Source of the DNA: Lytechinus pictus
Taxonomy: Eukaryota
Direction: 5' to 3'
Assembly: GCF_037042905.1 (NCBI RefSeq)
Contig: NC_087252.1
Span: 2,482,001-2,546,000 of the forward strand
Length of the DNA stretch: 64,000 bases
The stretch's first letter is position 1, and each line of letters begins with the position of its first letter. This document shows, one piece after another, positions 726 to 56,900 of the stretch. Below the pieces are notes generated by a model, which was given only the letters and a program-made list of their open reading frames with translations, ran no database searches and was not told the origin of the DNA. The position numbers and the translations under genes are program-made.

Positions 726-819
726 ACTATTTTTAATTTTTGGAAGTTTTTGGAACAATTTCCTTTGTTTTTATGTTATATGTTATATGTATTTTGATGT
801 TTTATGTTTGTTTCATCAG

Positions 820-980
820 GCCATGGTCTGTCTAAGGATAATATGGCAAAAGAGAATTCTCTGCATCCTCGTGAGAAGCGATCTTCATCTTCATCTTCAT
901 CTTCATCTTCTTCTTCTTCATCATCTTCAGAATCTGATTCTGATTCAGCAGAGGTAACGACCGCCGCTCCCGCTCCTTAG
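820..980 (+). CDS. Terminal coding exon of secreted Ser-rich proprotein gene A (first exon probably upstream of the window)
   Basis: Acceptor tttgtttcatcAG|GC, phase 1. Reads (x)HGLSKDNMAKENSLHPREKR-S16-ESDSDSAEVTTAAPAP*; the R-E-K-R furin consensus precedes the poly-Ser. Same design as genes B and C. Confidence 0.7.
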
Positions 981-1987
981 TACTGATGACAGTGCAGACA
1001 GTGATACTAGCGATTAGCCATCATCTTGGTTCAAGGCAACTGCGGTGACTCAATGGATCCTTGAGGAACTCAATCTTAAAAGGCTCTTAACGGCTCATGT
1101 TAACTATATAACATGCCCCTCTCACTTTTAATAGCCCCCCCCCCCTCCCCTCTAAAGTGACACTACTCACGAGACAAAGCTCCTGCATGGATTCACATCC
1201 GGGATAGTTGTTTGATCATGTGGTTCACCCTTTTGACTCTTGGGTCGTATTGACCCGGAACCGGTCCGATGTGACCTCTTCATGGTCAGATCTTACCTTT
1301 TCCATGTCACATAGACAATTTTTCATGTCATTTTCAAGAAAATATTGTTAAAATATCCAAAATAAAAAATTTGTCAACTTCCTAATCCTCTTTTGGAATC
1401 AGACGACTAGTCAGACAATGCTTGCATAAAATTAGCCTTATTCCCCATCATTCATCTTCATAATTATACGCAATGAGTATATTTTTAATTAGTTTCATTT
1501 TGTTAACGAAATATGCCGTATTCATTCTTTTCTTTGGAGGGAGTTAGGGAGGGACTTTCTTTATCTTTCTCTCCCTCTATCTCTCTATTCTCTCTCTCTC
1601 TTTGCTGTTGGTTTTTTTCTTTATCCTGTATTCCAAGACACATATTAAGAACCGTATTAAGATTAAATTGAAGTTCAAACAGTTTGTCGTTTCTGAGAGT
1701 GTTGTTGTTGTGGTTGGATATGTACTTACATTCTTTTATTGTACCATGGATTGATTTATTTTTTCTTTACTGAAAATTTCTCATAGAAAATATCAATAAC
1801 GTATTTGGTATATCTAATACACTGTTTTAAGCACGTTGTTGAAGTCTTTCACTCTAAAAGTTCTTTAAATTTTCAACAAGTTGTTAAACAATGATTTAAA
1901 GTTTTGGCAATTGTTGTCAAAGTGAAGGGATTCATAAGCAACGTGCTTAATATTAAAAGAAAAGCATATAGGTTGTGTTTGCATGAT

Positions 1988-2249
1988 TTAAATGCAAAGT
2001 AGCTAATCTGGTCCCAAATCATACTCTTTTCAGAGTGAGATGAGGGATTAATCCTGATGGAATGAGATTTCAATCTATCAAGAGTGAATTTTTACCTTTT
2101 TTGCAGTGAAAGTGTAAAAAGGCACATTTTCAGTCGAAGAAGGTAAAAATTCACTCTTGAAAGACTGAAATCCCATTCCATAAGGGCTAGTCCATCATCT
2201 CACTCTAAGAGGAAAGTGAGAATGGTCCAGATTAGCTCCTTTGCATTTA
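1988..2249. repeat. Degenerate foldback (MITE-like) inverted repeat
   Basis: caagagtgaatttttacctt / aaggtaaaaattcactcttg, with arms extending about 110 bp. Confidence 0.75.
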
Positions 2250-2611
2250 GAGAGAATAGAATACATAATTTAGGGGCCGTTATAGTCTTACCTATTATTC
2301 ATAGTTTAGGAATATAATCCCTGTGTATACTGATAATATATTTTATCCGACAATTACCATAGTAACATTGCTTCTTAGTCCATCAAAATCACGGAAAGTT
2401 GTCAGATCTGACAACTTGTCGGACAAAATAGTTGATGAAACGCTCAACTGATTATCCATCAAGACACCCAATGCCGAAAGAGTTAAAAACAAACGCAACA
2501 TGAATTTCAACCAATCAAAACGAGCATTTGGGACATGTGATTGATTTCTTGCCTTGCCTTTAACATGTTTAAACGCAACTCTTTCTGTAACGAGCGCAAG
2601 GTGCGGCGTCA

Positions 2612-3062
2612 CACTGCAAATACACAGGTGTTGATTTTACATAAGCCCGGTATATATGTCGGAAAACAACAAGAAAGTGTTTTTAAAAACACCAGTTAAG
2701 AATAAAACCGATGTTGGTTTAACAAGGTTTGGTGTTCTTTAAATACCTATCTGGTGTTAGTATAAAGCTGAAGTTGTGCTGTTTCAACACCTCTTTGGTG
2801 TTTTCCTACACACTTAAAATGTTGGGCAACATACTGTCCACTGTAGTTGGTAATGTATGTTGGTTAAGAAGATATATATTCTGGGCAATTGTTATCTAAT
2901 TGAGCAAATTTATTACCCAATTGGACAGATTTTAACCAATAGTTTTGTGGACAGTATGTTGCCTAGTGATGGTTAGAAATTGGGTCCTTTTTTACCCAGC
3001 CTTTTAAAGAGTGTATATAGTTACCGAGCTGGTGTAAAATAAACACCGGTAATCTTGCAGTG
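2612..3062. mobile_element. CACT-terminus MITE containing a second nested MITE (2809-3013)
   Basis: CA|CACTGCAA...TTGCAGTG|CA. Inner element TA|CACACTTAAAA...TTTAAAGAGTG|TA. Confidence 0.8.
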
Positions 3063-3233
3063 CAGGATTTGAGGGGGGGAATACGATGTAGAGGTGACGT
3101 CATATCCTTTTCTTAATAGGTAAAAGAGTTACACTTCCCAAACCTATCGTCTTTATGTGTCTACTCTTCTTCTTACTTTCCCTTTCTCCTCCAGACCTTT
3201 CTTTTTGTCCCCTACTGTTTTCCCGGATTCCAT

Positions 3234-3390
3234 GACATTTGCTCCGGCGACAATTGCTCCGCTCTAGACCCCACACATTAATCGAATGACCAACTTCCCC
3301 CTACCCTAAACCTAACATAAAACCCTATATTGCAACCCTTACCCTACACCTTAAACAAAGCTGGGGCAATTGTCCGCAGGAGCAAATGTC
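3234..3390. mobile_element. Small MITE with internal CCCTAA-like repeats
   Basis: TIR gacatttgctcc..gacaattgc / gcaattgtc..ggagcaaatgtc. Confidence 0.7.
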
Positions 3391-4034
3391 GTGTCACTTT
3401 GTCGGTATCTATATACAGTGAGTCTCGGGGGGGGGGGGGGGAACAAAAAACAAAACTTAGAAGAAAGTTCAATATCTGCTAATAGAGTACCGAAGTGTGA
3501 CGTCACTGTCATGACAACGAACCGACTGGTTCTAAACAGAGTCGCAGCTGACGATCGTCTATACGCATTTGTATTTGCAAAAAAAATACCATCATTCTGA
3601 TGTTGCAAGCGAGGGAAATTCCGTTAGCAGCCATTTTCTCCTATGAGAAACACGATCCGGATTAATTTGTTTGAAACCAGGCCGCCATGACACCATTGCA
3701 ACTGACGTCATCGCTTCGGAACTCTATAACTAAATGGATAAACATGTTCCCCCTTGAAATGATGCTTGAAATTCCATAACTTATCATACCAAGACGTTTT
3801 ACATGCTGTCTTTCGGACCTACCAATTCTTCCTAATGTTTGTCAATGCATAAACTTTGTTATTGATCATGACCAGGCATGCCTATTTATTGGTAATCGCT
3901 ATTTTGAAGCAATGGTTTCTATGACGCACAAGACTAGGAAGCGAATGAATTATTCTCAGTAAGTTGTGCGCCATTTAGAAGTATCAAGGAGCAAAGAAAT
4001 TTCATCAATTTATCGTACAAAGTGTCAGGCGATA

Positions 4035-4290
4035 CACTCTAAAAAAATCTTTACCCAATATTGGGTAAAATGGGAACGTGCATGTTTGTTGTGTAAAAAG
4101 ATACCAAATATTTTGTAAGTTTTACCAGGGACGTCTCCCTCTCACGTCCCTGGTTTTACGCAATGTTGCGTTGAAATTTATCCTTCAAACATGCATTTTG
4201 CCCAATATTGAGAGAAAAAATAACCGGCAAACATGCATGTTCCCTTTTTACCCAAAATTTGGAAAAATTTTACTTTCTATTTTTAAAGTG
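4035..4290. mobile_element. CACT-terminus palindromic MITE
   Basis: TA|CACTCTAAAA...TTTTAAAGTG|TA with internal inverted arms. Confidence 0.75.
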
Positions 4291-6134
4291 TATTATGGAG
4301 CTCAAAATTGAAGATGATTACAACTATTGGATTCATATTTTTTGTATAATACAAAGACAAAAAAGAAGGCTTCAAAAACGTCAAAAATGTCCTCACACCC
4401 CCCCCCCCCCACTTCTATTCTCGTTCACCCTTGAATATAATTTTGACAGTTTCTTTCTGGTTCCAGTGCTACAAACTAGTTCGACGAAATTTGTTCAACT
4501 TGTTTAACAAAATTTAGAATTTTGGTGTTAATTCATCAGTATTTTAACACTTTAATATCAAACATAAGTAAATGAATCAGCAAATAAATAGATTAATAAG
4601 CAAATAAATGGATAAATAAATACAATTATGATTGAATTAATAAATTAGTAAACAATCAAGGAAAAAGAAATTGTGAGAATTGGGGGCTAAATCGAAGGAA
4701 AACCCTCGACTATAATTGTTTTATTTGAAAAGAAAAACAAAAGTGAACAACAATGAATCAAAGACAGTATAAATGGTAGTGTTCAGTTGGTAAATATTTT
4801 GCTTGATGACGAACAAACATCCAATCGTTTCATCAGCATTGATAAGTGGTAATACAATTAATTAAAAAGTAAACGACATTGGAGAGCATCTTTACGTCAC
4901 AATAATAAGCCTTAAATATTCTCTTTGGATACATTTTCGTAATTTTTTAATATTACATATATTATTTTTCTCATGTTTTGTACAGTTGATGAAAACAAAC
5001 AATAATACCAAGCATAAAGCATTAAAAGCTAATTGCGAATCCAGGGTTTATGGGGGGGGGGAGGGGTATTGCACAGAATGTGGGTCGCCTTATTTTTCGG
5101 TACCCCCCCCCCCCCCCTTCTTACAAAAAATCGAACTAGGGCCTCCCATATACTCTGACATTTTTAAAGATAATATGAAAAAACAGGTACAATTCCGCGA
5201 TATCTGATCCTCCCTTGATGTACATCTGATAGTCATTGTTTAACTACACATTTTCAAAAAGAAAGGAAACATGAAGTATTTTCAGGAGGAAATGATATAA
5301 GTGAACATGATGAATGAGGTGGACTAATTATAAACAGTTCTAATGAAATATCTTTCAATGCGTTTTTTCCTTATTCTTATTTTCATTTCTTCTTTTTTCT
5401 CTTAAACATTCAAGTTCTAATTTTTATCGACATGACAACCATAGGGGGTGGTTGTCTTTCTCCCAGCCCCGCCCGATCCCTCTATAAGTCACAAGCTATG
5501 AAGGTCGGTTCATAATTATGGTCAAGATGACGGTAATCAAAGAATAAAACAAATCATCTATACACATTATTGTGGAATGCGTCAATTTGTAAGAATAGCG
5601 ATAACAAATATAAACAAAAAGAAATGCCTCATCGTGGTTTTGCATGGTATGTTTATTTTTAATTATTTTCTATTTTTAATTAGTATGCATACAGTACCAT
5701 CATCAAAAACGTTTACACTTTCATCTAATTTTGAGATTATTGTTCATGCATGAATCCTGTTTCCGGGAGGTAATTAGCTTCCTGGAGTAGGGTTTTCTTC
5801 CGTGATCTCTTTAATTAGCATGCAAAAACAAATCGGTATTCCATTGCTAACATTCCGCAAAATATTAAAATACATTCTTCTAGAATTAGATTCAGTTCCT
5901 TGAACCCCGTTGATACGTAATCAATATTTTGTTTGCATTATGTGCATTTTCCAATTCTTAATCAAATAGAGGTATCCTACTGAAAGCTAGGCTGTGTTAT
6001 ATATTTAACTAGAAAATGTTACAAGAAATATTTATTGTTGTTGTCTTCCAATTAGTAGAACCTGACCTGCTGAATGTTTATGCGAATCTTTCTGGAGTAT
6101 GGAAGACATTAAAGTTGTTTTGGTAGACCTTTAA

Positions 6135-6867
6135 AGGGGTACTCCGGGTGAAAAATAATTATATTTTAATGAATAGAGTAACATTCACTGAGAAAATGCT
6201 GAAAGTTTCATTCAAATCTGATAACAAATAAAGGAGTTATTGAATTTTAAAAGCTGTTTTATTTTGTGAAAACAGTTGTAGGCAGGCCTCATGAATATTC
6301 ATTAGGCGGGCTGATGATGTCATATCCCCACTTTCCAAGATACCAAGGTTTTTAGGTATTCGAAATAAAAATTTGAATAAGCATAATGTCATGTAAAATA
6401 AAATGCAAAAGAACAAGTCGGGAAATGACTTCATCATTTTGCTCATTGAATATTCATGAAGACATCCATAGAACTGTTACACACTCTAAAAGATATTGGG
6501 TAAAACTGCTCCATGAGGATAATTATGTGTCCAGCCAACATTGGACATTTCTTTTGGGCATTTTTATTTATCCAGTGTGATGAAAAATTTGCCTATTCTA
6601 AAGTACTTGCTGCTTATTTTTTAACCTTACTGGACAATACGCTTCCCGCATTGGGTAAAATACTGCCCAAAATTGGTTGGACACATAATCACCCTCATGC
6701 TGGTATTTTACCCAATATTTTTTTTACAGTGCACTGAAATAAAACAAACCATTAAAATGTCATGACTTTGTTATTCCTTTCCGATTCTTATTAAATTTTC
6801 TGTGTTGCGTTTGTCTGATGTTTATTTATCTGTTCAAATCATATTATTTTCGGCCTGGAGTACCCCT
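6135..6867. mobile_element. Kolobok/T2-type MITE with a nested CACT-type MITE
   Basis: TTAA|AGGGGTACTCC...GGAGTACCCCT|TTAA. Nested element at 6482-6731. Confidence 0.85.
6482..6731. mobile_element. CACT-terminus MITE (CMC/EnSpm-like), 2-bp TSD CA
   Basis: CA|CACTCTAAAAGATATTGGGTAAAA...TTTACCCAATATTTTTTTTACAGTG|CA. Confidence 0.8.
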
Positions 6868-7234
6868 TTAAGTTCTTCTATAAAACTGGAAGAGATACGA
6901 AGTGGTAGAACTTAAAGTATAACACATACAGCCCGTTGCAGAACATGCAGAAAGAGTTGTGATCAAACGCAACTCAAAAATTCTTGAGCAACTTGATTTT
7001 CAGCCAATGAAGCACCCATATTCGTGACTTGCGCTTGGTGTTTTGACTTGCGTTTAAACGCAACTCTTTCTGCAACAGGCCCTGAGTATGATATGGTAGG
7101 CTTTAAAGTTGTAGTAAAACTGGCAGGACCGGATGTGGCAGACCTTAAAAATGCATTACCATTATTACGGTTAGAAGTACGGTTGCAGTCAAAATGCAGT
7201 TACAGGCCAAATGTCGCATGTTGCATGTCCTAAC

Positions 7235-7476
7235 CTAGGCAGGGGAAGGAGGACCGATCATTGTTGTCATGGTTGTGGTAGAGGCAGTTGTAGGTGTTGC
7301 GGTGGTGGTCGTCGTTGTTGTTGTTGTTGTCGGTGCTGGTGGTTGAACTATTTCTTCAGATGAGCTAGATGAGCTAGATGAGCTCGATGAGCTCGATGAA
7401 GAACTAGATGATGAGCTAGATGATGAGCTAGAGTCACTCCTTCTGTCCCTCGCCTGCCAATGCCCCAGACTTCTCG
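7235..7476 (-). CDS. Gene B exon 2: propiece, furin site, 25-Ser run, Thr-rich tail
   Basis: Acceptor ttttttttcattctgatttaaAG|CG, phase 1. Reads (A)RSLGHWQARDRR-SD-S25-EEIVQPPAPTTTTTTTTTTATPTTASTTTMTTMIGPPSPA*. The Ser run mixes TCN and AGY codons. Confidence 0.8.
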
Positions 7477-7897
7477 CTTTAAATCAGAATGAAAAAAAAA
7501 AATCAAACATAAGATCACACAGTGATCGCAGAGGCAGATCAACCAAATTTTAATGTCGGGTATGCTAACCTCACATTCACTTTGTTTTATTTTAGATTAA
7601 AAAGAGAAAATCTACCCCCCCCCCTTTCTACTCCCCCCCCCCCTATTGGCACGAATACATACGGTATACATGGTTACTAATTATCTTTTTCATTTGACTT
7701 GTACTTCCTGAAAATCGATTTTGTTGAAAACACCAAATATTTTAGCAAAATTCTATGCCATATATATTTTTTGTTAATATTCAAGTTTACTTTTTTTATT
7801 TCATTTCTCAACTCGATGATACAGCATATGAAATAATTACACAGATATAAAATGATAACCGTACAAATCAATACAAATGAATACACATTGAATATAC

Positions 7898-8069
7898 TGA
7901 TGACGACCAGAACACGCTGGTTGAAATGTCGGTAACAGTTCTTTTCAGAGCTAACATATATTCAAGAAAGAATAACAAACAGTCCTAAAGTTTCAGGATT
8001 ACATACATGGTGTTTACCGTAAAATCTTTTAATATTCTCTCCACCATGGAAACCTTCAAAGATCATCTA
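7898..8069 (+). mobile_element. Penelope-like pLTR remnant with degenerate hammerhead core
   Basis: CTGATGA-c-gaccag/aacacg/ctggtt-GAAA-tgtc at the 5' edge. Flanked by the 13-bp direct repeat ACATTGAATATAC (7885-7897, 8070-8082). Confidence 0.65.
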
Positions 8070-8085
8070 ACATTGAATATACATA

Positions 8086-8127
<42 letters not shown>

Positions 8128-8128
<1 letters not shown>

Positions 8129-11100
8129 TGCGCCTCCGTAGAGATAGCCTCTTTCATTTAGGGCTCTGTTCATTTTGTTGATTTTTTGCCTTATTTTGAG
8201 GTTACCTTGAATTTAGTTGTTAACACTGCATTCTGTATATGTCAAGGATCTTGCTAGACTTTTTTTATTCAATATTTTGGTGAGTAAGCTTAGTATTGAG
8301 AAGTTGTATTTTATGTACCATATCTGAACTTGCTCAACACTGCCATTTTCAGTGTCCTGTGTTACACTCATGCCTCTATTCACTGTCTATTTTACTTATT
8401 GTTCAGGCAGTTTAGTTTGTACTTCACTTCTGCCTCTTTAATCACAGACAGTAGTGACATTCCATCTACAATGGAGGGGATTAAATTCCTTAGGTTCTTC
8501 TTTGGTGTATCATTGATTGTATTTCTTTTGAATGTTAACCATGTATTCACTCTGCCTTCTGATGCCAGAGATACCTATTCATGTTCTGTTATTCCTGTAT
8601 ACAGGCATCTGAAGTACTGTAGTAGGCCTATTGCTTACTATAGCAATACAAGTGCCTGTTTTCAGTTAGCCATTTTACTATCAGGTGATATTCATATGAA
8701 TCCAGGCCCACGCTATGATGTTGATTCATTTAAATCTACTAATGAATATTGTAACAGTTCACAGTCAGATCGTATTCAATATGATGTTCTCACTCTCCAT
8801 CAGTTAGATAGGAAGCCTTCTCATCATCTTCCTCTGACTGTTTGGAAAAGGATTTGTGACCTTGGTATCCGCCGACATGGTCCTACTCATCGCGGACACA
8901 GGCGTATGGTCTCAAGGCCGCATCCCCTTCCTTCGAGGCCTACTGGTACTCGTTTAGGTTTATGGAATGCACGATCCTTGACAAACAAGATTGATGTAGT
9001 GACTTCTTTGATCATAGATAATGATATTGATGTATTAGTTATCACTGAGTCTTGGTTTTCAGGTGATCACAGAGATGACCCTACTCTTGCGCAGTTGAAA
9101 TTGTCCCTTCCAAATTACAACATTATCAATCGTCCCAGGAAGACTAGGGGAGGAGGTATATGTGTCCTCTACAGGTCCACAGCACGCTGTGTTGTAAATG
9201 AAACCTTTAATTGTTCCTCATTTGAATTTTTGGATCTAACCGTCCATCTTACCCCATCATCTCCTGTTAAATTGTATTGCATTTACCGCCCACCCCAATC
9301 CTCCCGGCACACTTTTTCAAGTGGTGATTTTCTTGAAGAGTTTCTCACTCTTCTGGAAAGTGCTGCTGTGGATGTTCATCCTCCTATTCTTCTTGGTGAC
9401 TTTAATATTCACGTGGATGATTCTTCAGACAATTTTGCTAGATCTTTTCTTAATGGAGTGGAAGCCCTTGGATTCAAACAACACATCAACGGGCCTACAC
9501 ACAAGGCTGGTCATACACTCGACCTTGTCCTTAGTAGAAATTCGGAAGATATTATCTCCCAGCATAGCATTTTACCATCTCTGCCATCTGATCACTCTGC
9601 TATTATATGTACTATTAATCTCAAAGGGCCCCAAAACCCCAAGAAGAAAGTGACTTTCAGGAAACTTTCTAACATTGACCCTAAATCTTTTAGTCTGGAT
9701 GTTAAAGATGTCTTAGATTCCTCTCAATTTCCATCTTGCCCATCTGAGGCTGCTTCTCTGTATAACGACTGTCTTGGTAAACTGATGGACAAGCACGCCC
9801 CTCTGCAGACTGTGACTGTTACAGTTAGACCAAAAGCTCCCTGGTTCTCTGCTGAAATTAGGGAGGCACGGCGACTGAGGCGACGCGCAGAACGTCGAAT
9901 GATGAAGTCTGGCCTGCAGTTTGATAAGACATTATATGCGAAACTTACTACAATCTCCTCACTGATGCCAAATCAAAATACTTTAGATATGAAATCGCTA
10001 ACGCCGACTCCAAACAACTATTCAGTATTGTACAGAAACTCACCACCCCCTCTCAGTCCTCCATTTATCCTGAACACTCATCTGCTTCTGATCTCGCCAA
10101 CAAATTCAGTGAATTCTTTAGCAAGAGGATCAGTGATATTGTGTCCTCTTTTGCACCTGACGTTCCTAGTGATCAACAACATCCTGTGGGCTCTTTGAAT
10201 TGCAAACTGAGTGAGTTTACTCCAGTGACTGAAGTTCAACTTCGCCATCTCATCAAGTCATTACCACCGAAGTTCTGCAGTCTTGATCCTTTTCCAACTT
10301 GGTTGCTCAAAGACTGTATTGATGAACTTCTACCGCTTCTCATAAACATTATCAATTCATCACTCACAACAGGTGTTGTCCCTGAATCATTCAAATCATC
10401 ACTAGTTCTTCCTCTGTTGAAAAAGCCCAATCTTGATCCGAATGACTTTGGCAATTATCGCCCTATCGCCAACCTGCCATTTGTTAGCAAGGTTTTGGAG
10501 AGAATCGTCGCATCCCAGCTCATGTGCTATGTGGACAGTCATCATTTGCTTCCTGAGAAGCAGTCAGCATATCGCAACTTTCATTCAACAGAAACGGCTC
10601 TCTTGAAAGTACTCAACGATCTACTGCTTACCGTCGACAAGGGTAACGAAGCTGCACTCCTTCTACTGGACTATTCTGCGGCGTTTGACACTTTAGACCA
10701 CTCAGTGTTGCTCCAGCGTCTTGCACATGACTACTCCATTACCGGAACGGCTCTAAATTGGATTGAGTCATACCTGCAAGATCGTACTCAGCGGGTGATT
10801 ATCAATGGAACTTTCTCAGCACCTTTCGCTTTGAGCTGCGGAGTCCCCCAAGGTTCTGTTGTGGGCCCTCTCCTATTTCTTCTGTACACTGGTCCTCTCG
10901 CAAAAATTATCACTAGCCATCGGGGTGTGAGTTATGCCATGTATGCAGATGACACGCAAATCTACGTATCCATGGCATCCGACCAGAAGACATATGCTGT
11001 TAATCTACTGAGTGACTGCCTCAAGGACATCAAGGTCTGGTCAGCGAAGAACAGACTCCGTCTCAACGAAGCCAAATCAGAACTGGTACATCTTTCTTCG

Positions 11101-11776
11101 CAATTTAGAGCTACGGAGCCTCTGCCAGACTTCAATATGGGAGAGGGCATACTTAAGATGTCTGACTCTGTCAAAGACCTTGGTGTCACTTTAGACAAGC
11201 ACCTTACCCTCCAGCCACATATCAGGAACATCTGCAAATCAGCATCATGGGGTTTATTTAGGATTGGTAAGGTCAGGCGACTACTCGACCAAGCCTCTAC
11301 TGAAAAACTCATTCATGCCTTCGTCTCATCCCATCTAGACTATTGCAACTCCCTCTTTGCCGGCCTCCCAATTTCTTCCATCTCTCCCCTCCAGCGAATC
11401 CTCAACACTGCAGCGAGAATGGTAACCTTGAGCAAGAAACACGAACACATCACCCCTATTCTCCGATCACTTCATTGGCTTCCGGTTCACTCTCGCATAA
11501 CGTTCAAAATTCTACTCATTGCATACAAAATTACCCATAATATGTCACCCAAATATCTCCAAGACCTTATTTCCCTTCGTTCTTCCTCTTCTGTCAGATC
11601 CTTACGTTCATCATATTCCAATAATTTAATTCATGGCCCTCGCACTAAGACCCGATATGGTGATCGTGCATTTTCTGTAATTGCTCCCACCCTCTGGAAT
11701 AAACTCCCAATTCATATCCAAAATGCTCCCTCCGTAGAAATTTTCAAATCGTCACTTAAAGCTCACCTTTTCTCAT

Positions 11777-11808
<32 letters not shown>

Positions 11809-11925
11809 CTCCCCCTTTTTTTCCGACCGATTGACTGTATATTATTATAATCTGCCAACCTGTGCGCTTTGAAACACCAGTATAAAGCGCCCTACAAATG
11901 TTATTATTATTATTATTATTATTAT
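8128..11925 (+). mobile_element. L2/CR1-group non-LTR retrotransposon, near full length, single ORF, in the intron of gene B (antisense to it)
   Basis: APE endonuclease motifs (WNARSL, ITESW, GDFNIH, GHTLDL, SDH), RT motifs (YRPIANL, AFDT, GVPQGSVVGP, YADDTQ), HITPILRSLHWLPV C-terminus, 3' stem-loop GCGCTTT..AAAGCGC (11864-11890) and (TTA)n tail. Confidence 0.95.
8471..11778 (+). pseudogene. LINE endonuclease-reverse transcriptase ORF with a single frameshift at about 9937
   Basis: The first frame reads ...LQFDKTLY. The second continues CETYYNLLTDAKSKYF... into ORF 10141-11778. No other disruption seen. Confidence 0.9.
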
Positions 11926-12099
11926 ACTTGAACCAATATATTTTATGCATTTACACACACTTTTCTTACTTAGCTGAACCTTAAAAATGATGATCCACCA
12001 AACATAATCAGAGTATACCACCTTGCCCCTAACATAGCAACATTAAAATAATATGGAATAACAGTTTGTTGGGTTAAAAGCTTTTTTGGAAATAACACG

Positions 12100-12900
12100 G
12101 AGTCATAAAGTGTATTCACAATGTGCTCACGTCTGCACAATCATAACATAGTGAACTGAAGGTGTGATACACCGCTGGAATTGTGGAGATGTTAAGCAGA
12201 GCGTTTCCATTGTTACAATGCTCAAATTTAAAAGGTTGAAGATAATTTCACAGTGGACACTTCTATAGCCATGACAGCAAGAATATTCACAGCGCGTTTA
12301 CATATGATAGTGGAATTTGTGAAGATAATGCTCAAATTTTACCTCCGCTGTGTGAGTTTTCAAGGTCTTTGGTTTTCACAGTGTCTCTCATAATGAACGA
12401 TGTGATTCACACTATCAAAATACTAAAGATTAACAAAGGGAAACTTCTGTAGTGTGGATTTACAGGGGTTTTGCCCTATTATAATTGATTGTCTAAAGAT
12501 GCGATTCACACCACAGTTAAACAGCTCAAATTAAACACTGTGAAGATAATTTCACACTATCTGTGTACACTTCAACAGCGGGGATATATTCAACATTGCG
12601 TTCACATATAGTAGAATTTGCAAAGATGGAGTGTCAAAGCTAACAGTGTGGTGATGATTTCACACTGTGGATACTACTGTAGTGCGCATTTACAAAGTGT
12701 GTCCATATAATGGACCGTGTGTGGAGCCTGGATTTAGTTTCACACTATGGAGACCTCAACACTGAGGGTGAAGTGTGTTCAAACAGTGACCTATGAGAAG
12801 ATGTATTTCACACTGTTAAAATACTCAAATTTGAACAGTGTGAAGGAGAATCTCACACTATGTTCCACTTCGTGAACACACCGTGCGACACTGTATTATT
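12100..12900. repeat. Degenerate tandem repeat region
   Basis: Recurring ctcaaattt...gtgaagataatttcacact motifs. Confidence 0.6.
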
Positions 12901-12957
12901 TCCCACATGGAAAAGATCGGGTTTCAATATTGGATGAGTGATTTTATCTTAACTTAC

Positions 12958-13015
12958 CACAAGCTGATGAAACCAGTAGCGAAAATAGGAAAAAAAATTT
13001 AACAATATTCGTCAT
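12958..13015 (-). CDS. Gene B exon 1: signal peptide of a 99-aa secreted poly-Ser/Thr proprotein
   Basis: ATG at 13015 encodes MTNIVKFFFLFSLLVSSAC plus G|GTAAGT, a perfect phase-1 donor. TATATAAA lies about 145 nt upstream. Confidence 0.8.
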
Positions 13016-13157
13016 TTTTTTATCGCTGAGTTCTTTGGATATGTACTCAATTATCAGAAACAATCGGCCCCAGTTGTAGTCTTCTTGGAAAACTTTTAAT
13101 CATGAAATTCAGCTTGCAAATAACATAATAGTGTTTACTCCAATGATGTGTGCTTCC

Positions 13158-13165
13158 TTTATATA
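13158..13165 (-). promoter_or_regulatory. Candidate TATA box of gene B
   Basis: TATATAAAGG on the minus strand, about 145 nt upstream of the gene B ATG. Confidence 0.5.
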
Positions 13166-14246
13166 TGAAATAAGGGGGAAATGTTTGAGAAGTAAAATTG
13201 GATTGAAATTTTCAGATAGGGTAATATACGACTTCAGAGGTTGAATAAACAAACTATTGCTCATTAACCTCAAAACAGGACATGTTCATGTGTTTCCTGA
13301 TCTGATTTGCAGTATGTATACTTTCCTTCCGGGGGGGGGCAAAACGCATAGAAATTTTTTGAAGAAACGTGATAAGAGAGAGCGAAGAGAGAAAGCGAAG
13401 CGACATAGATGGTTATTTGGGGCGCCATTGCATTTTCCACTGTACAATTAAATTTAAGATAATCGTGCACACTTTTTGTCAATTTTGTGAAAACTTTAGT
13501 AAAAATTTACATTTTGGGGAGGGGCAAATGCCCCCCCCCCCCCGCATCGCCCCCGATATCTAAGGCCATGTTACTCAATTTTAGATCGAGGGGCTAATTT
13601 CGAATAAATAACAATTTCCGGGCACTTTATTCTGAATTTTATTTCATCTGAGTATAAATATTTATTTCCAAATCGTTATAGAATTAATTTTAATTGCAAC
13701 TCGTTTCATCGATGTATTGCACTGTATCTTTCTTTCTTTTATTTTGTTATTGAATATTCAATCGGTTCATATATCGCATTACCCGCCCCTTCCCCCATAA
13801 AAGGAAAGAACATTACGAAAAAGTTAGAAAGACTTTCTCGTTTTAATCCCTTGAAAGATAATCGCTTAAAAACACTAACGTGTCTGTATACTGACACATA
13901 TCTGGCCTCATTTAACCAAGAGTTGAAACCTCAAACACGATCGACATATTTCTTCTTTATCCTTGCTTATTTGTACAATTAACCATAGATATTTTGCTTA
14001 ATCATTTGTCTGTTTGTTTATTCCTTCCGCCATGACAATCGGTCAGCCAATGATGATCAGGAAAATCTGGAGAACGGTTGATTGGCGCGTATAATGATAT
14101 CACCTTATTTGTTTGGGATAATTACGATCGTAAACAAACCTTCGTATTACGAATTTTCTTTGGAAGGGATCACTTTGTAAAAAAAAAGAGTTCGTAATGA
14201 AAATGCTCGACCATGGAGGTAGAACGGGACGGCATCGACTTCTTAA

Positions 14247-14848
14247 ATGTCAAGTCCTTCCCAGAAAAAAGTTGATATCAATAAATAGAGAAAAATCAAA
14301 CAAGAATAATGCTGAAAACTTCTTCAAAATCGGATGGAAAATAAGAAAGTTATGACATTAAATTTTGTCGCTTATTTTTCACAAAACAGGTTTTTCCTGA
14401 ACTCAGTGACATGCAAATGAGAGAGACGATGATGTCACTCACTCACTATTTATTTTGTTTTTTATTGTTTGAATTATACAATATTTCATTTTTTACAGAT
14501 TTGAAAATTATGACAATCTTTTTTGAACCACAAAATGTTAAAACAATAGAATTCCACATGTTCAGGGAGCAATGAAAAATTTTCCGCATGACAATGAGGA
14601 GAAAATTTAAATATATCATATTTCATATAATAAAATACAAAAAAAATAGTGAGTGGGTGATGTCATCGGTTCCCTCATTTGCATACTGTCCAGGATGTGC
14701 ATATAACTGTTTTATGAAATTTAGCAAAACTTTAAAATGTCATAACTTTCTTATTTCAGATCCAATTTTGATGAAATTTTCAGTGTTATCCTTGTTTGAT
14801 TTTTCTTCGTCTGTTCAAATCATCTTTTTGTTGGGGTGGACTTGTCCT
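14247..14848. mobile_element. Kolobok/T2-type MITE
   Basis: TTAA flanks and long imperfect TIRs. Homologous to 29013-29594. Confidence 0.85.
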
Positions 14849-15396
14849 TTAAAGAATAAGAAAATGTATTTCAAAATTACTTCGGCCTCCTAAAAAATGT
14901 TGACAGGGCTAAGTAATTTTAAAACACATTTTTTTAGTTTGGGGATACTAATATTACTTTCCCAAGAGGAATTAGAGCGCATCCCGCAAACTCCTATAGT
15001 TGACGAGGGGCCATTGATCAGAACAACCCAACCGTACTATTACTGAACGGCCTATGTTCGATGTCAAAAACTCAAAAGGAGAGGGCGCCATACTTTACCA
15101 GAATATGTGAAACATCAATCGGACTTATAACCGGTAACTAATCCTCAGCTATATGCAGTTTCTCCCAAAATATCAGCATTTTGATTGGAATACGGATAGT
15201 AAAAATTAACGGAAGAACATCATGATAATGTTTAAAACAACAAGATACTAATAATGGTAATTGTCACACTATTCATTCATTCATTCAAATATATTTCAAT
15301 TAATAGGTTAAAAATACATTTACAAACACCGTGATATACATGTATAAAGACACAAAAACAGAATTAATTCATAATTATCTGTTAATTCATAACAGA

Positions 15397-15626
15397 TAAT
15401 AATAATATAGGTATATTATTACCCCGGCTTTAGCTGGGCTGCCTAGGCGCTCAAATCATTCAAGGAATTTCTTCCTACCGGGTACCCATTCACCCCACCT
15501 GGGTTGAGTGCAGCACAGTGTGGATGAATTTCTTGCTGAAGGAAATTACGCCATGGCTGGGATTTGAACCCACGGCCCTCTGTTTCAAAGTCAGAAGACT
15601 AATCCACTGGGCCACAACACTCCACA
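15397..15626 (-). mobile_element. tRNA-derived SINE (same family)
   Basis: Reverse-complement match to 43606-43882 including A/B boxes and core. Confidence 0.88.
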
Positions 15627-16199
15627 ATGTGAAAATACATTTTAATACAGATGAATTATGATATGCCATCATGAATAGAATTTTTCAAAAAATCCGATCT
15701 ATATTAATTTTCGTTCGGTAAGTGCTTTCGTGAAACCGGGCCCCGGCAACATAAATCTGAATCAGAAGCCGCAAATCTGTCAGATCGATTTCCAGTCGTG
15801 GATCGGTCAATAAGCGCAAACTCGTGATCGGCATATCGAACTGAAATAAACTTTTCACAACAAATCTCTACAGCATCCGTTTCTCGCTTATCGGTTTATC
15901 ATCATAAAATGGTTTTTGCCTTGAAAATTCAACAGATGCTGTATATTTTAAGAAAATAACATGGGTTACTGAGTGTTTTGAGATGTCATTTTCATTACAT
16001 TAATGAAATAAAACATATTCATCCCGCAGTTGTTCGAGTAAAACCAGAAAGAAAATGTATTGATTACGGGCGTTTCTTCAAGCATTGCAAGATGTAGGCA
16101 GTATTACCTTATTTCGCAAAAGTTTTGACAAGGTTGAGAAAGTTTCTCAAAATGTTCTTTTGAGTACTTGCTGACTTCATCGGAGATTGCCATTTCATC

Positions 16200-16258
16200 A
16201 TAATCCACGAGCAAAATAATCAAGGATGTGTAAATAGGACTAGACTAACTATCAAAAG
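16200..16258 (+). other. Possible non-coding 5' exon of gene C (5' boundary unknown)
   Basis: Strong donor AAG|GTAAGA at 16258/16259. The gene C ATG is directly preceded by an acceptor, which implies an upstream UTR exon. Confidence 0.35.
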
Positions 16259-17707
16259 GTAAGAAATTACAAAATGTGTTTGATCTCATTATTCAATATT
16301 TGTATGGTGGTTAGCTGTTTAGTCTCAGTATTTTTTAAATATTTACTTTATGTAGGTTTATGCATTGTAAAGCATTGAACATGCATGTTAAATCGGAGAA
16401 TAAAGGCCTATATATATATACATGCTTATAACATTGGGGAAAATATTGCAGTTAATTATTTCATTTGGCTATAGGCAAGGGTTTTAATAATTTTCCATTT
16501 CTAATCATCTGTCTGTTGTTATGTTGTGTTTCACTTGTTAATTCGACAGATTTAATTTCTGATGTAAAGTGATGACAAAGCTTGAATTAGCTTCTCAAAT
16601 ATCACTACGATTTTTGTGCACGTAATCATATGATGACAGTGGTTACTTCATAATTCATAAATATACCACAAATCTCGCAAATCATTTTGATTACTGGTTC
16701 TAGCTAAACCTAACCAAAAGTAGGCCCGCAAATAACCGAAATGAATTAATAAAATTTATGGAATGCAATGCAGTAAAGGTTCGATTCTATTGTTGAAAGA
16801 TATATATATATATTTCTGGTTCACTCTGTTCCACTCTCATTTCTAATTTCCCTCACACCCCCCCCCCCCCCCCCTTTTCTCTCTCCAACAATCCCGCCAT
16901 CCATCTACCTGTTTTATCAGTTTATGTCCAAAGAGCTCTTTAATTTATTTGCTGTCTTCTGTCATTTTCTCGAACTGGTTATCTTTTATTTACTTTTTAA
17001 AAAGCGAATTCAGTAGCTGTTTTAATTGTTATTCTCTCCATTTTCTCTCTGATTTGATTTGATTTCATTCTTTTCATTATTTTGTTCCTTTATCCTATAG
17101 CTCTTCTTTTCCTTCTACTCCCCTCCTCGCATTTCATTTGAAAACTTTTTAACCGTATTATAATTTCCCCATGTGTTGTTATGATTATTCAAATGTCAAA
17201 GTTTGGTTCTATTCAATTCATTTATTTATTCAACCATCAAAAGGATAAAAACAGTACAATATACCTTATTAACAAAGTATCATAAAAACAACAACAACAA
17301 CAAATAAATGGTTCGGAGACCCCGGAGAAGCGATGGTTATAAAAGGGGTCACCACAATACATTAATGCATTACAAATAACAAGTGTGAAGAAAAGTACAA
17401 TTCAGATTATTGAAAACAATTTGGTCGTGACTTTATGCAAATAAGTGAAATAATAAATAAAGGAAACATTATTTCATAGTGATCTATTTCCAGATAACCT
17501 ACTTGCATTTTTGTACCCTAGTCCTTTTTTGGAAAAGCTTCTTTAGAAAGCGATATTTAGATGTAAAGATAATTTAATATTAAGAAGGAGATACTGATAT
17601 AGAACATTTAATTTTTTTGAAAAGTAAATGTTATGCCTTTGAAAAAAATTCCCCCATGACTTATTGATTATGATCTCTATTTTGTCAGAGTTTCCTATTT
17701 TCCATAG

Positions 17708-17777
17708 ATGAACCTTGGATATATGATCTTCATCTTACTGCATTTATCATCTCTGTTACATAATGAATCAGCAGATG
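17708..17777 (+). CDS. Gene C first coding exon: signal peptide of a 359-aa mucin-like proprotein
   Basis: ttttccatAG|ATG encodes MNLGYMIFILLHLSSLLHNESAD plus G|GTAAGT, a phase-1 donor. Joined to 20301 it gives ...SADA-HPAKRR, an A-x-A type cleavage site. Confidence 0.75.
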
Positions 17778-17879
17778 GTAAGTTTCCTCTTCCCATTTTT
17801 TTTTTCATTTCCCTTTTCCTCCGTTTCCTATTCACTTTATTTTCCTTTATTCCTCCCTCCTCTTAGTCATCATTCTTTT

Positions 17880-20300: not shown

Positions 20301-21310
20301 CTCATCCAGCTAAACGCAGGATCGGACCTCTCTTCTCTGACTTGGGCCTCATCGGTGGAAGGAGATATCAGAAAAGATCAGGAAGCAAGAGTGGAAGCAG
20401 CAGCGGTGGAAGCAACAGTGGTAGCAGAAGTGGTAGCAACAGTCGTATCAGGAGTGGTAGCAGAAGTGAGAGCAATGATTCATCCGACGAGCGTTTCAGA
20501 AAGAAGTATCCCTCAGCAACCCTTCCTACCATAACAGTGACAACACTTCCCAGAACCATGCCACCAAGATTCACAACAGCTCGCACGGCAGCTACAACGA
20601 CTACACCGCCACCACCAACGACACCACCAGGAACGACTGTGACAACCTCTATGACGCCTACAGTTCGAGTAGAAACTACGGAGCTTACCACTTCAAACAA
20701 TCCAATCACGCCAGCCACTCCTACGACGCCGACAGCAACTACAACTCCTATCACATCCAGATCTCCAACCACACCTACCACTTCCACTACAACCAACACC
20801 CCAACGATAATTACAACACCTACAAAGCCTACAATCCCCACCACTCCTACAACTCCTACCATCCAAACGACTCCCAGGACACCCACGACACCAATCACTC
20901 CTACAACGCCTTCGACACCAACAACACTAACTACCCCCACGACTCCTACAACAACAATAACAACGACGCCAACTACTCCTACAAAACCTACTACTACGAC
21001 GACACCTACCACTCCTACGACACCAACTACCCCTACGACACCTACGACTCCTACGACATCAACTACCCCTACAACAACCACAACATCGACGACACCTACG
21101 ACTCCTACGACACCAACTAACCCTACGACTCCTACAACAACAACGACGCCAACTACTACTACATCACCTACTACTACGACGACACCTACGACTCCTACGA
21201 CACAAACAACCCCAACCACCCCTACAACACCTACGACTCCTACCACACCTACCACTCCACCAAGTACTACCAGGTGTATACGTCGAGGAGATATTTGCCC
21301 AGGAGAGTGA
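20301..21310 (+). CDS. Gene C terminal exon: Ser/Gly-rich block plus mucin-like (PTT)n Thr/Pro domain
   Basis: Acceptor ttatttttcatAG|CT, phase 1. Reads HPAKRRIGPLFSDLGLIGGRRYQKR-SGSKSGSSSGG...SESNDSSDE-RFRKK...(PTT)n...RCIRRGDICPGE*. The frame is open for 1 kb and synonymous codons vary within the repeats. Confidence 0.85.
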
Positions 21311-53900: not shown

Positions 53901-56900
53901 TCATTCTTTCCTTTGAATCTGTTATTTGGACCTTGCTTGTTCTGTCTACTGTTTATTACTTAGGTCCAGGCCCAATTCCAGGACTAGAATCATCTAACAG
54001 ACTGGATAATGTTGTCAGGAATGGGAATAGTCCAACCTCAGGCAAGGACTAAATACAGTTTTCTATATTTAGTCAGATGTAGACTAATCTTGAGCCACTA
54101 ATTTGCTTCAATAAGCCAAGGCTTGGATCCAAACCTTGTGTTTTCGAGCTCTAAGTTTCATTTCAAAATATAGGTTTTTTGTTTTTGTTTTTTTTCATGT
54201 AGGGCAAAAATAAAAAGGTCTTCAAAATCAGGATCCAAATTTTCACATCATCAGTACATCTCTAAGAAAAACAAAGTCAACCCCTCAATCTCATTTCAGT
54301 TATCGTTTTCATTCATCTAAACCTGTATGTAAAACATGGGTCTTACAGGTTAGTACATGCCTGCACATATTAATGTGCTTGTATGAGAGGAAAACATCTC
54401 ACTCGATAAAAATTATACACATCCAAAAGAAATACATGTACATGTACATGTAAATACAAACATTTATTCCATCAAGTTTGAGCACCATTTTGATTATCCA
54501 TTCATATCTAACACCCTTATTATTTTTAACCACTAAACTGCGTAGCACGTTATTATTACGTGCTGGGCGAGCGTACAAAAATCTGTGCGGGGCACGTAAT
54601 ATTATGTGCTTGACCTTTCTTATGTTTGAGGCGTCAGCTCCGCGCTGTTGATACCCCTACGATGAAAACAGCGCATGTACATGTATATCAAATTTTATAC
54701 TATGGACACCAGATGGCGCTTTTCCACAAAAGTTATCGAAACTTTTGCAGTGATTTTTTATAAATGTTTGTATTCACTTTTCTATAGTGAAAGTGTACGG
54801 CGTCTCAGTTCAAAATGGCGACTCGCTGTGGAGAAGCGAATCGGAAGGATTTTGACGAAACTTTTGACGATAGGAGTGATAATTTTAGTGAAGGATCTGT
54901 GTCAGAAGGGGAGGATGTTTTTGTATGGATATTGGAAATACATGTAGTGATGATGAAAGTGATGTGATTATTTACAATTTTTTTCACCAAGTTGCTGTCG
55001 GTTGTAGTCCCAATAGATATACATGTAACTTGTGAGTCCCATTCAATAGCACTAGGGGGGTCAGTGTAATTATAGTCTATAGCAGTCAAGTGGTTAATGC
55101 AATTCATCTTTGATTTTGTTTTCAGATATTTAATAATGGTAGCAATTTCACTCAATACATTACACATGAGAACTAAGAATTTGATTGAAATGGACATGAA
55201 TTTCCTTTGTGCATCTTATTATAAATTCATACATCATTTCAAACTAGACCCATTGTAAATGACGTGATAAATGTTTGATTGAGTGAAAAACACTGCAATT
55301 TCAAGTTTAGTGTTGAATTTTTGGTGTTGGTAATGTGCGATTTTTTGTACACTGTATATACATGTATCAGAACAACATCAAACTTAAAATATCCTTCTCA
55401 GCCAATCAAAATCAAGTATAGCCATATAGGCCGTGTTGCATTTTTCATGAAATCCTTGATTTGATTGGATGATGAGCATTGTTTCCATGGTAGTTAACAT
55501 TGGATGGCAAAGTTACCATATGATATTGATAATAGTAACTTTGATAACCCAACCCCCCACCCCCATAGGTCCTGGGTTTTAGTTTTAAGCGTGAATTAAA
55601 AATGTTTGATGTATACATGTTTTTATATGTTTTATACGTTATGCAGAGAGACAATCGAGTCCTTCAAGAATAAAGCCAGATTCAGCAGAAAGAATTATTG
55701 CCAGTAGCGATGATGAGACTGATATCGATATGCTTGATGACATTGAATCTACCAAAGAGGTTTATAGGACAAAGGTAATAGAAAATGACAGAGTGAGAAT
55801 TAGTGCAGGCCTGAATGATGTTTTTTTTTTGGGGGGGCATGGTGAGTGACTTAATACCTTACCTGACCGCTGTTCCTTCTCTTTGAAGAGGTTGGATGTC
55901 ATGGTTTTCCATCTTTCTCTATCCAGTGCTATCTTGCAGCATTCGTTTATCTTTCTGCCTGTCATCTCTTCAATATTTCCAAGCCAGCTTTTTCTTTTAC
56001 GTCCCCTTAATAAGAATTAAAATATGGTCTTTTGGTTTTAAGGAAAAAAAGTCCACTGTAACAGCGAAATGTTCCATACTTTCTGAAAGTATACTGGAAA
56101 TTAACATTGATTCAAAAAGACACATCACCCATTGCAATTGTTGTGCATAATCTTATTGATTTTGATTTGCTCATTTCTCAGGCAATTACAAATTTTTCCC
56201 AGAATCATTCTGCAGATAATTTTTTTTTGTCAAATTAGAACTGAAAAGAAAATTTATTCATTTCACATCTCATGAAACCAGAATACTATACACAAAATAC
56301 ACAAACAAATATGTGCAAACTGATTTTTATGTATTTTGTTTGAAATAATTTTGGCATCATCACTAGAGCTGTAATAACATTTCATTATAAGTCTTTGCTT
56401 TTCTCTGATACTCAAATCTTTATAACATTTTTTGTTAAACAGACGGAGCTTTATGTCAGCGATCTATCTCGGAAGAAAGTCAACACACTGGAGAAGAAAT
56501 ACAACATGTACGCCTGGAACCTTATAACCGTCTCTGTATTCTATGCTCTCCCAGTTGTTCAACTTGTCATAACATATCAAGTGGTGAGTGGACTACAAGT
56601 ATTTTAAGTTTTGATAGATCCTCCAAAGTTCCATGTCACCATTCCAATTTACTAAATTAAATGAGAAGAAATACAACATGTATGCATGGGACCTTATAAC
56701 AGTCTCTGCATGATATGTTATAACCAGTTTTTCAACTGGTTATAACATATCAAGTGGTAAGATCTTATACCTACATGTATTTCAAGCTTTGATAGTTCCC
56801 CCAAAAGTCCATGTTACCAGTCCAATTTAATACTAGATTATATGAGAAGAACTGAAACATGTGATCCAAGAACTTTATAACCATCTCTTTATGCTATCCA

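Follow-up and report, generated by a model that had tools for sequence, protein, structure and literature searches.

Gene B, on the minus strand of a 64,000-nucleotide stretch of the Lytechinus pictus genome (contig NC_087252.1, here C8, positions 2482001-2546000; hereafter the window), is best explained as a genuine two-exon, taxon-restricted sea-urchin gene whose product is a phosphorylated, secreted calcium binder. As a whole, this explanation is given a probability of roughly 0.47; that gene B is real, is spliced and encodes a secreted protein is, taken separately, very probable. The predicted product of 99 residues contains 25 consecutive Ser (7432-7358) and 10 consecutive Thr, and its mature part, counted after an RDRR motif, has 67 residues. 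Of these, 53 are Ser, Thr or Pro (7 Pro), with 1 Asp, 2 Glu and 1 Gln; Lys, Arg, Tyr, Cys and His are absent, so that no trypsin site is present. The features of the gene are as follows.

13156..13165 (minus, read from 13165): TATA-like box TATATAAAGG, a putative promoter element
13016..13135 (minus): predicted 5′ leader, its start placed by guess 30 nt below the TATA-like box
12958..13015 (minus): coding exon 1, from ATG 13015; 58 nt (19 codons plus 1 nt), ending at a phase-1 GTAAGT donor
7477..12957 (minus): phase-1 intron of 5481 bp, the acceptor end backed by contigs and the donor end predicted
7235..7476 (minus): coding exon 2, with the end of the leader, a short basic propeptide, RDRR, the Ser run, EE, the Pro/Thr tail and TAG
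7439..7450 (minus): RDRR, a match to R-x-K/R-R that we take to be a furin-type cleavage site
7352..7432 (minus): 25 Ser, encoded by a 9/12-bp tandem repeat, followed directly by EE, the only Glu of the protein
7301..7330 (minus): 10 consecutive Thr opening the Thr/Pro tail, likely to be O-glycosylated judging by composition
4700..7234 (minus): long 3′ untranslated region (UTR) of ~2.5 kb, traced by contigs, with an AATAAA at 4725-4720 near its approximately placed lower end
8471..11775 (plus): long interspersed nuclear element (LINE) in the intron, antisense to gene B, with PF03372 (4e-17) and PF00078 (1e-32)

Everything that a preliminary description had read from the locus is present, namely the TATA-like box, ATG 13015, a hydrophobic leader, the GTAAGT donor and a 99-residue frame with its Ser and Thr runs and 67-residue mature part; the 3′ UTR, the intronic LINE and two short upstream open reading frames (ORFs) were absent from it. 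The upstream ORFs lie in the 5′ leader (ATG 13126, 5 codons; ATG 13103, 18 codons) and both terminate before the main ATG. By hydropathy alone, the peptide leader encoded by exon 1 resembles a signal peptide, with a Kyte-Doolittle value of 2.42 in an 11-residue window. The acceptor reads AAG, where YAG is commoner; it is preceded by a T-rich tract and has the highest upstream pyrimidine share (0.79) among the 14 AGs listed between 7400 and 7600. Each exon is single-copy in a genome search. A scan for signal exons (ATG, 14-32 open codons with a hydrophobic core, then a GTRAG donor in phase 1) across 214 kb on both strands (428 kb) returned 8 rows and 6 different donors, half of which (3/6) are supplied by gene B and two neighbours, genes A and C. 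Since exon 13015-12958 was the sole minus-strand candidate in the 214 kb, the arrangement of gene B appears to be beyond chance.

Contigs from four sequencing runs (X1, X2, X16 and X22) were placed on positions 745-17800 at 85% likeness, giving 24 pieces among the matches listed (with 38,892 more) and 15 listed joints of 736, mostly in repeats. In two of the four runs, from two studies, contig matches break exactly at the predicted acceptor. Record 6 of X1 (384 nt) matches 7206-7476 with 0 differing letters and 24 gap letters, leaving 136 letters unplaced among the matches listed, and record 13 of X16 (535 nt, minus strand) matches 7053-7476 with 4 differing letters and 15 gap letters, leaving 126 unplaced. 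X2 and X22 have no contig breaking at 7476 among the matches listed. Unspliced DNA would not give a break at the same base in two runs, so the break reflects splicing: acceptor 7476 is used in a transcript. The 126-136 unplaced letters would fit into the 178 nt from 12958 to a start near 13135, and exon 13015-12958 is the predicted partner of exon 7476-7235, the donor end being the inferred one.

Downstream of the stop codon, X16 contigs cover 4673-6322, 6293-6531 and 6652-6856 as well as 7053-7476 (depth 10.8-13.8), while X1 contigs cover 4697-4873, 5181-5509 and 5513-6079 (depth 2.7-7.9). Contigs of similar depth run down to 4673 (X16) and 4697 (X1), slightly beyond the AATAAA, so gene B has a transcribed 3′ UTR of about 2.5 kb. 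Record 17 of X2, whose label names another organism, is about 87% like this region at 5545-5880, hinting at an orthologous transcript. Acceptor use, the 3′ UTR and the signal-exon scan thus support the small, secreted, Ser/Thr-rich spliced gene originally proposed.

The intron owes its length to the LINE, which spans about 3.3 kb of the 5481 bp. Its parts are a signal-like hydrophobic leader of ~80 aa, a 2A-like NPGP motif (8699-8710), an endonuclease and a reverse transcriptase, the last two lying in two overlapping frames. X16 contigs are 97-99.6% like this element, which points to a young LINE family; these contigs may come from other copies or from unspliced material.

The preliminary description also took the alternation of TCN and AGY codons in the Ser run as a sign of selection on the protein, and this argument proved weak. 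The run uses TCA 9 times, TCT 7, AGC 6, TCG 2 and AGT once, with 14 switches of codon family, but its units, 9 bp long (4.7 copies, 96%) with a 12-bp variant (3.9 copies, 85%), are repeated in tandem, so that slippage alone would copy the alternation, which is therefore no independent evidence of selection. Weaker, residual support comes from three observations. Mixed-family poly-Ser arrays in any frame are produced by 864 of 262,144 possible 9-mers. The three variant events among the repeat units, counted by eye, are all synonymous (chance 7/27 cubed, or 0.017, an optimistic figure for a run chosen for its purity). Among the four runs of at least 10 Ser in the 214 kb, that of gene B alone mixes codon families, the others being two plain AGT/AGC microsatellites and the run of gene A. 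Selection on run length is apparently loose, since the X1 and X16 contigs differ from the window by the 24 and 15 gap letters mentioned; both counts are multiples of three, as repeat slippage would yield anyway. A plus-strand reading across the repeat, giving an acidic Asp-Glu-Leu repeat, was rejected, its frame being short and bounded by stops.

The Fam20C motif is S-x-E/pS, and rows of Ser are described as phosphorylated in the MEPE ASARM peptide and in phosvitin (PMC7422707, PMC7948968, each available in part). SSE and SEE at residues 58-59 of the gene B product are SxE sites, and the EE directly after the run primes both registers of an S-x-E/pS relay; a predicted secretory leader and S-x-E/pS sites, both features of Fam20C substrates, are thus combined in one frame. 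When the motif was applied stepwise and compared with 100,000 sequences whose non-Ser residues were shuffled around fixed Ser positions, 26 of the 28 mature Ser of gene B were reachable, a figure equalled by 136 shuffles (p 0.0014). For gene A, all Ser were reachable (19/19), as in 1,291 of 100,000 shuffles (p 0.013), and the two proteins attain this coverage by different residue arrangements. Three Fam20-family loci are found in this genome (C10, C12 and C15), in line with the one Fam20B and two Fam20C genes reported for a sea urchin in the accessible text of PMC7948968. Judging by these residues, the gene B product is probably heavily phosphorylated.

The hydrophobic leader would direct the protein into the endoplasmic reticulum, and a furin-type convertase would cut after RDRR to release the 67-residue product. 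A Golgi Fam20C kinase could then start at the two EE-primed Ser and walk up the run via S-x-pS, leaving up to 26 phosphoserines, while O-glycosylation of the Thr/Pro tail would keep the peptide soluble and extended. These steps draw on the sequence and on established secretory-pathway biology. Once secreted, the product would be a block polymer, in which a dense polyanion binding Ca2+/Mg2+ and mineral surfaces is joined to a glycan brush; gene A would yield a shorter version. At a mineralising tissue, it might control calcium carbonate deposition, either by holding an amorphous precursor or by limiting crystal growth, which is the least supported step. A mineral or calcium role is held tentatively, at slightly less than even odds, and is judged the likeliest role because phosphorylated Ser-rich proteins are reported from the sea-urchin tooth (PMC2758014, PMC2830187, each seen in part); the Ser/Asp-rich P16 of sea urchins is described as phosphorylated and apatite-binding (PMC2758014).

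If phosphorylated as predicted, gene B would place some 26 phosphates on 67 residues of a sequence with three acidic residues, and it would look neutral to screens for Asp/Glu-rich mineral proteins. The mature peptides of A and B lack Lys and Arg and their frames have fewer than 100 codons, so both may have escaped gene callers as well as matrix proteomics based on trypsin; the available part of one source suggests that P16 may have been missed in matrix proteomes for a like reason (PMC2909932). Gene B would also allow the Fam20C relay rule to be tested on a natural protein, and it is a candidate substrate of the Fam20C that is duplicated in sea urchins.

Genes A and C flank gene B on the plus strand, and their coding exons are placed as follows.

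L002:6897-6975 (plus): signal exon of gene A, 79 nt, followed by a phase-1 intron of 3844 bp; 79 aa in total
820..980 (plus): last coding exon of gene A, with REKR, 16 Ser, an acidic Ser-Asp stretch and a short Thr/Ala/Pro tail
17708..17777 (plus): predicted signal exon of gene C, 70 nt, with a phase-1 GTAAGT donor
20301..21310 (plus): predicted main exon of gene C, with dibasic sites, a Ser/Gly tract, a long Thr/Pro repeat and a Cys-flanked RGD

The 3′ UTR of gene A is covered in X1 by contigs at 952-1312 and 1379-1599 at a depth of 1671-1783, and its splice was not seen among the contig rows listed. Its depth falls from about 1700 in X1 to 12 in X16 and below 0.1 in X22. In X1, the depth of gene A over 820-1641 exceeds that of gene B about 300-fold, and in X16 the two are equal, which suggests that the two are regulated apart. 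Gene A may be the easier experimental handle, and a TATA-like box with a donor at L002:5635-5750 suggests that it has a non-coding first exon. The gene C product (359 aa, 141 Thr, 62 Pro) is mucin-like, with 6 Ser-Gly dipeptides and with dibasic sites but no R-x-K/R-R. At 20303-20380, it has a 12-residue hydrophobic peptide (from 20321) between KRR and GRR, presumably an amidated-peptide cassette, and at the exon end (21275-21310) two Cys enclose an RGD (21284) that might form an integrin-binding loop.

All three genes share a plan of leader exon, phase-1 intron, basic site, Ser-rich tract, acidic residues and Thr/Pro tail, and common descent is plausible from this layout. As gene C fails the relay test and no significant match among the blastn rows listed links the genes, the notion of a family rests on layout and linkage; protein alignment of the three is driven by Ser. 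The exons of A and C, searched against their own genome, found only themselves, and no further copies of A, B or C were seen. A degenerate pattern of R-x-K/R-R and Ser-rich codons has four matches in 812 Mb, two of which are A and B; the other two were rejected as chance (one intronic, one antisense to another frame), and a reversed control gave three.

Several observations weigh against the reading of gene B as a phosphorylated calcium binder. The minus-strand join of 12958 to 7476 in the preliminary description is borne out at its acceptor, while the join itself is not seen among the 15 of 736 joints listed. X1 and X16 both lack an RNA label in their records, the runs carry no tissue or stage labels, and gene B has a low depth of 5 to 13. 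A search across runs likewise turned up no matching run labelled as RNA, which counts neither for nor against transcription. The relay test was devised post hoc with the sequences already known, and gene C reaches 1 of its 18 Ser (6/18 with Asp allowed), no better than shuffles. A and B themselves were the template for the genome pattern, and A, B and C have no significant DNA similarity among the blastn rows listed. Alx1 palindromes show no enrichment, the window having 2 (5.2 expected) and L002 having 1 (1.0 expected); since half-sites can suffice (PMC8319359, partial text), this count is uninformative. In the accessible part of another sea urchin's test and tooth phosphopeptide tables, no peptide like those of B, A or C is found (PMC2830187), and single-exon protein searches gave no homologue that would show conservation of B.

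Among other explanations, the one that survives best, though unlikely, keeps the same phosphorylated product and places it in an adhesive, mucus or cuticle layer instead of the skeleton, with phosphoserine serving wet adhesion and Ca/Mg cross-bridging beside a glycosylated Thr tail. Mussel and tubeworm adhesives are reported to contain phosphoserine proteins (PMC4275877, in part), the mucin-like gene C lies nearby, the depth of gene A swings between runs as for a gland or epithelium product, and the lack of Alx1 palindrome enrichment agrees with it; the mature peptide, however, lacks the Lys, Arg, Tyr, Cys and His that could cross-link or bind surfaces. If this were its role, gene B would be a modest orphan gene. 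Decidedly less probable is a Ser run that is glycosylated or bare, making the product a small neutral mucin-like or proteoglycan-like spacer. The high Ser/Thr/Pro share of the mature peptide would suit such a spacer, as would the Ser-Gly dipeptides and missing relay of gene C, but mature A and B have no Ser-Gly, the positions of their Glu agree with the kinase rule more closely than those in shuffled sequences, and the poly-Ser of secreted phosvitin is described as phosphorylated (PMC7948968).

It is very unlikely that gene B is a weakly transcribed relic or young locus, with the Ser run an unselected repeat expansion in a functionless protein. The tandem repeat, the 24- and 15-nt length differences, the low depth, the upstream ORFs, the intronic LINE and the lack of a homologue are what such a locus would show. 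Against this stand the signal exon, correct phase, RDRR, synonymous-only variants and relay-compatible Glu, a neighbour of like plan that is highly represented in X1, and the part of the 3′ UTR region matched in X2, the run labelled as a different organism. The least likely explanation is a stand-alone protein that, like phosvitin, would store or carry phosphate, calcium or iron for eggs or coelomic fluid. In its favour, the pure Ser run resembles phosvitin in composition more than it resembles Asp-rich proteins of the mineral matrix (PMC7948968), but Pfam gives sub-threshold low-complexity hits and no vitellogenin domains, and the low depth is unlike that of a storage protein.

Homologue queries were single exons and not spliced proteins, with the leader left out. 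The exon-2 peptide of gene B had 19 candidates, none at E<=10, and against 1.84 billion representatives the exon peptide gave one hit (E 3.2e-4), a 503-aa low-complexity protein. Pfam returned three sub-threshold composition hits for exon 2 and no vitellogenin family. The gene A exon peptide found no homologue, and residues 1-125 of gene C gave one low-complexity hit (E 5.9) out of 5078 candidates. A protein atlas gives nothing for B or C, from which neither absence nor novelty follows. No description of A, B or C was found in the literature searched, where supplements with unnamed urchin genes could hold orthologues, and an Rfam search of window positions 1-24000 had 0 matches.

Elsewhere in the window, a multi-exon SID-1 family gene (23790-56604, plus strand; PF13965 on exon 56344-56604) offers a synteny anchor for orthologues. 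The genome also has a strong bindin match (E 1.5e-67), as expected of a sea urchin. Two single-exon frames for rhodopsin-family G-protein-coupled receptors (GPCRs) of 353-361 aa (Pfam 7tm_1) lie at L008:3265-4347 and L009:7821-8879 (plus strand). About 11 kb upstream of the window, the frame L003:8395-8844 (plus strand) has no Pfam hit and in our view resembles the seventh helix of a peptide GPCR. In L014-L016, a galactose-3-O-sulfotransferase exon and an intron-poor leucine-rich repeat gene are tandemly duplicated ~12.7 kb apart with identical listed translations, either a very recent event or an assembly artefact.

Compared with known systems, gene B would work like phosvitin or the ASARM peptides, but by its features it is not itself an SCPP, P16 or vitellogenin gene. 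In layout, the cluster of A, B and C is similar to SCPP clusters. Scleritin was considered as a relative and, as far as its source goes, is not alike (PMC3365975). Tubeworm Pc3 and mussel fp-5, likened here by description, are reported to be secreted, Ser-rich, phosphorylated and Ca/Mg-bridging (PMC4275877), properties that gene B is predicted to share; its mature peptide differs in having no Tyr or basic residues. P16/UTMP16 and phosphodontin are sea-urchin, Ser-rich, acidic phosphoproteins with a signal peptide and a link to mineral, according to the available text (PMC2758014, PMC2830187). P16, set apart by features and not by sequence comparison, has a transmembrane segment, whereas the best 19-residue window of gene B after residue 30 scores 0.07; it also has an Asp-rich tract, compared with pure Ser and one Asp in B and a short Ser-Asp end in A. 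Phosphodontin is described as a Glu-rich protein of 11-12-residue repeats (PMC2830187).

SCPP/SIBLING proteins are characterised in the part of PMC9122587 available as short secreted proteins with a signal peptide and SxE sites, encoded in a gene cluster; of these, gene B has a predicted N-terminal signal peptide (by hydropathy) and SxE Fam20C sites. SCPP introns, however, are given as mostly phase 0 and the genes as derived from and adjoining sparc-L (PMC9122587), whereas the introns of A, B and C are phase 1, and the SPARC_Ca_bdg matches in this genome (at least five) lie on C7 and C18, with none on C8 among the matches listed. Gene B also lacks a D/E-rich or P/Q-rich domain, its mature part having three acidic residues. 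That A and B form, together with a diverged C, an independently evolved echinoderm counterpart of the SCPP cluster is a rather unlikely idea; in it, very small secreted precursors would each have an N-terminal poly-Ser block freed by furin and, from a minimal Glu primer, phosphorylated throughout by Fam20C, yielding an almost pure poly-phosphoserine that binds calcium for calcite formation. The MEPE ASARM peptide has a Ser/Asp row behind a basic pair and is reported to receive up to 10 phosphates from FAM20C (PMC7422707). Phosvitin differs in being cut from a large yolk protein, while gene B is a free-standing 99-aa frame with its own stop, a Thr/Pro tail and a Glu pair directly behind the Ser run. 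What the two would have in common, as described for phosvitin in the accessible text (PMC7948968) and predicted for gene B, is an extended, uninterrupted Ser run that is cut out of a secreted precursor and phosphorylated by Fam20C.

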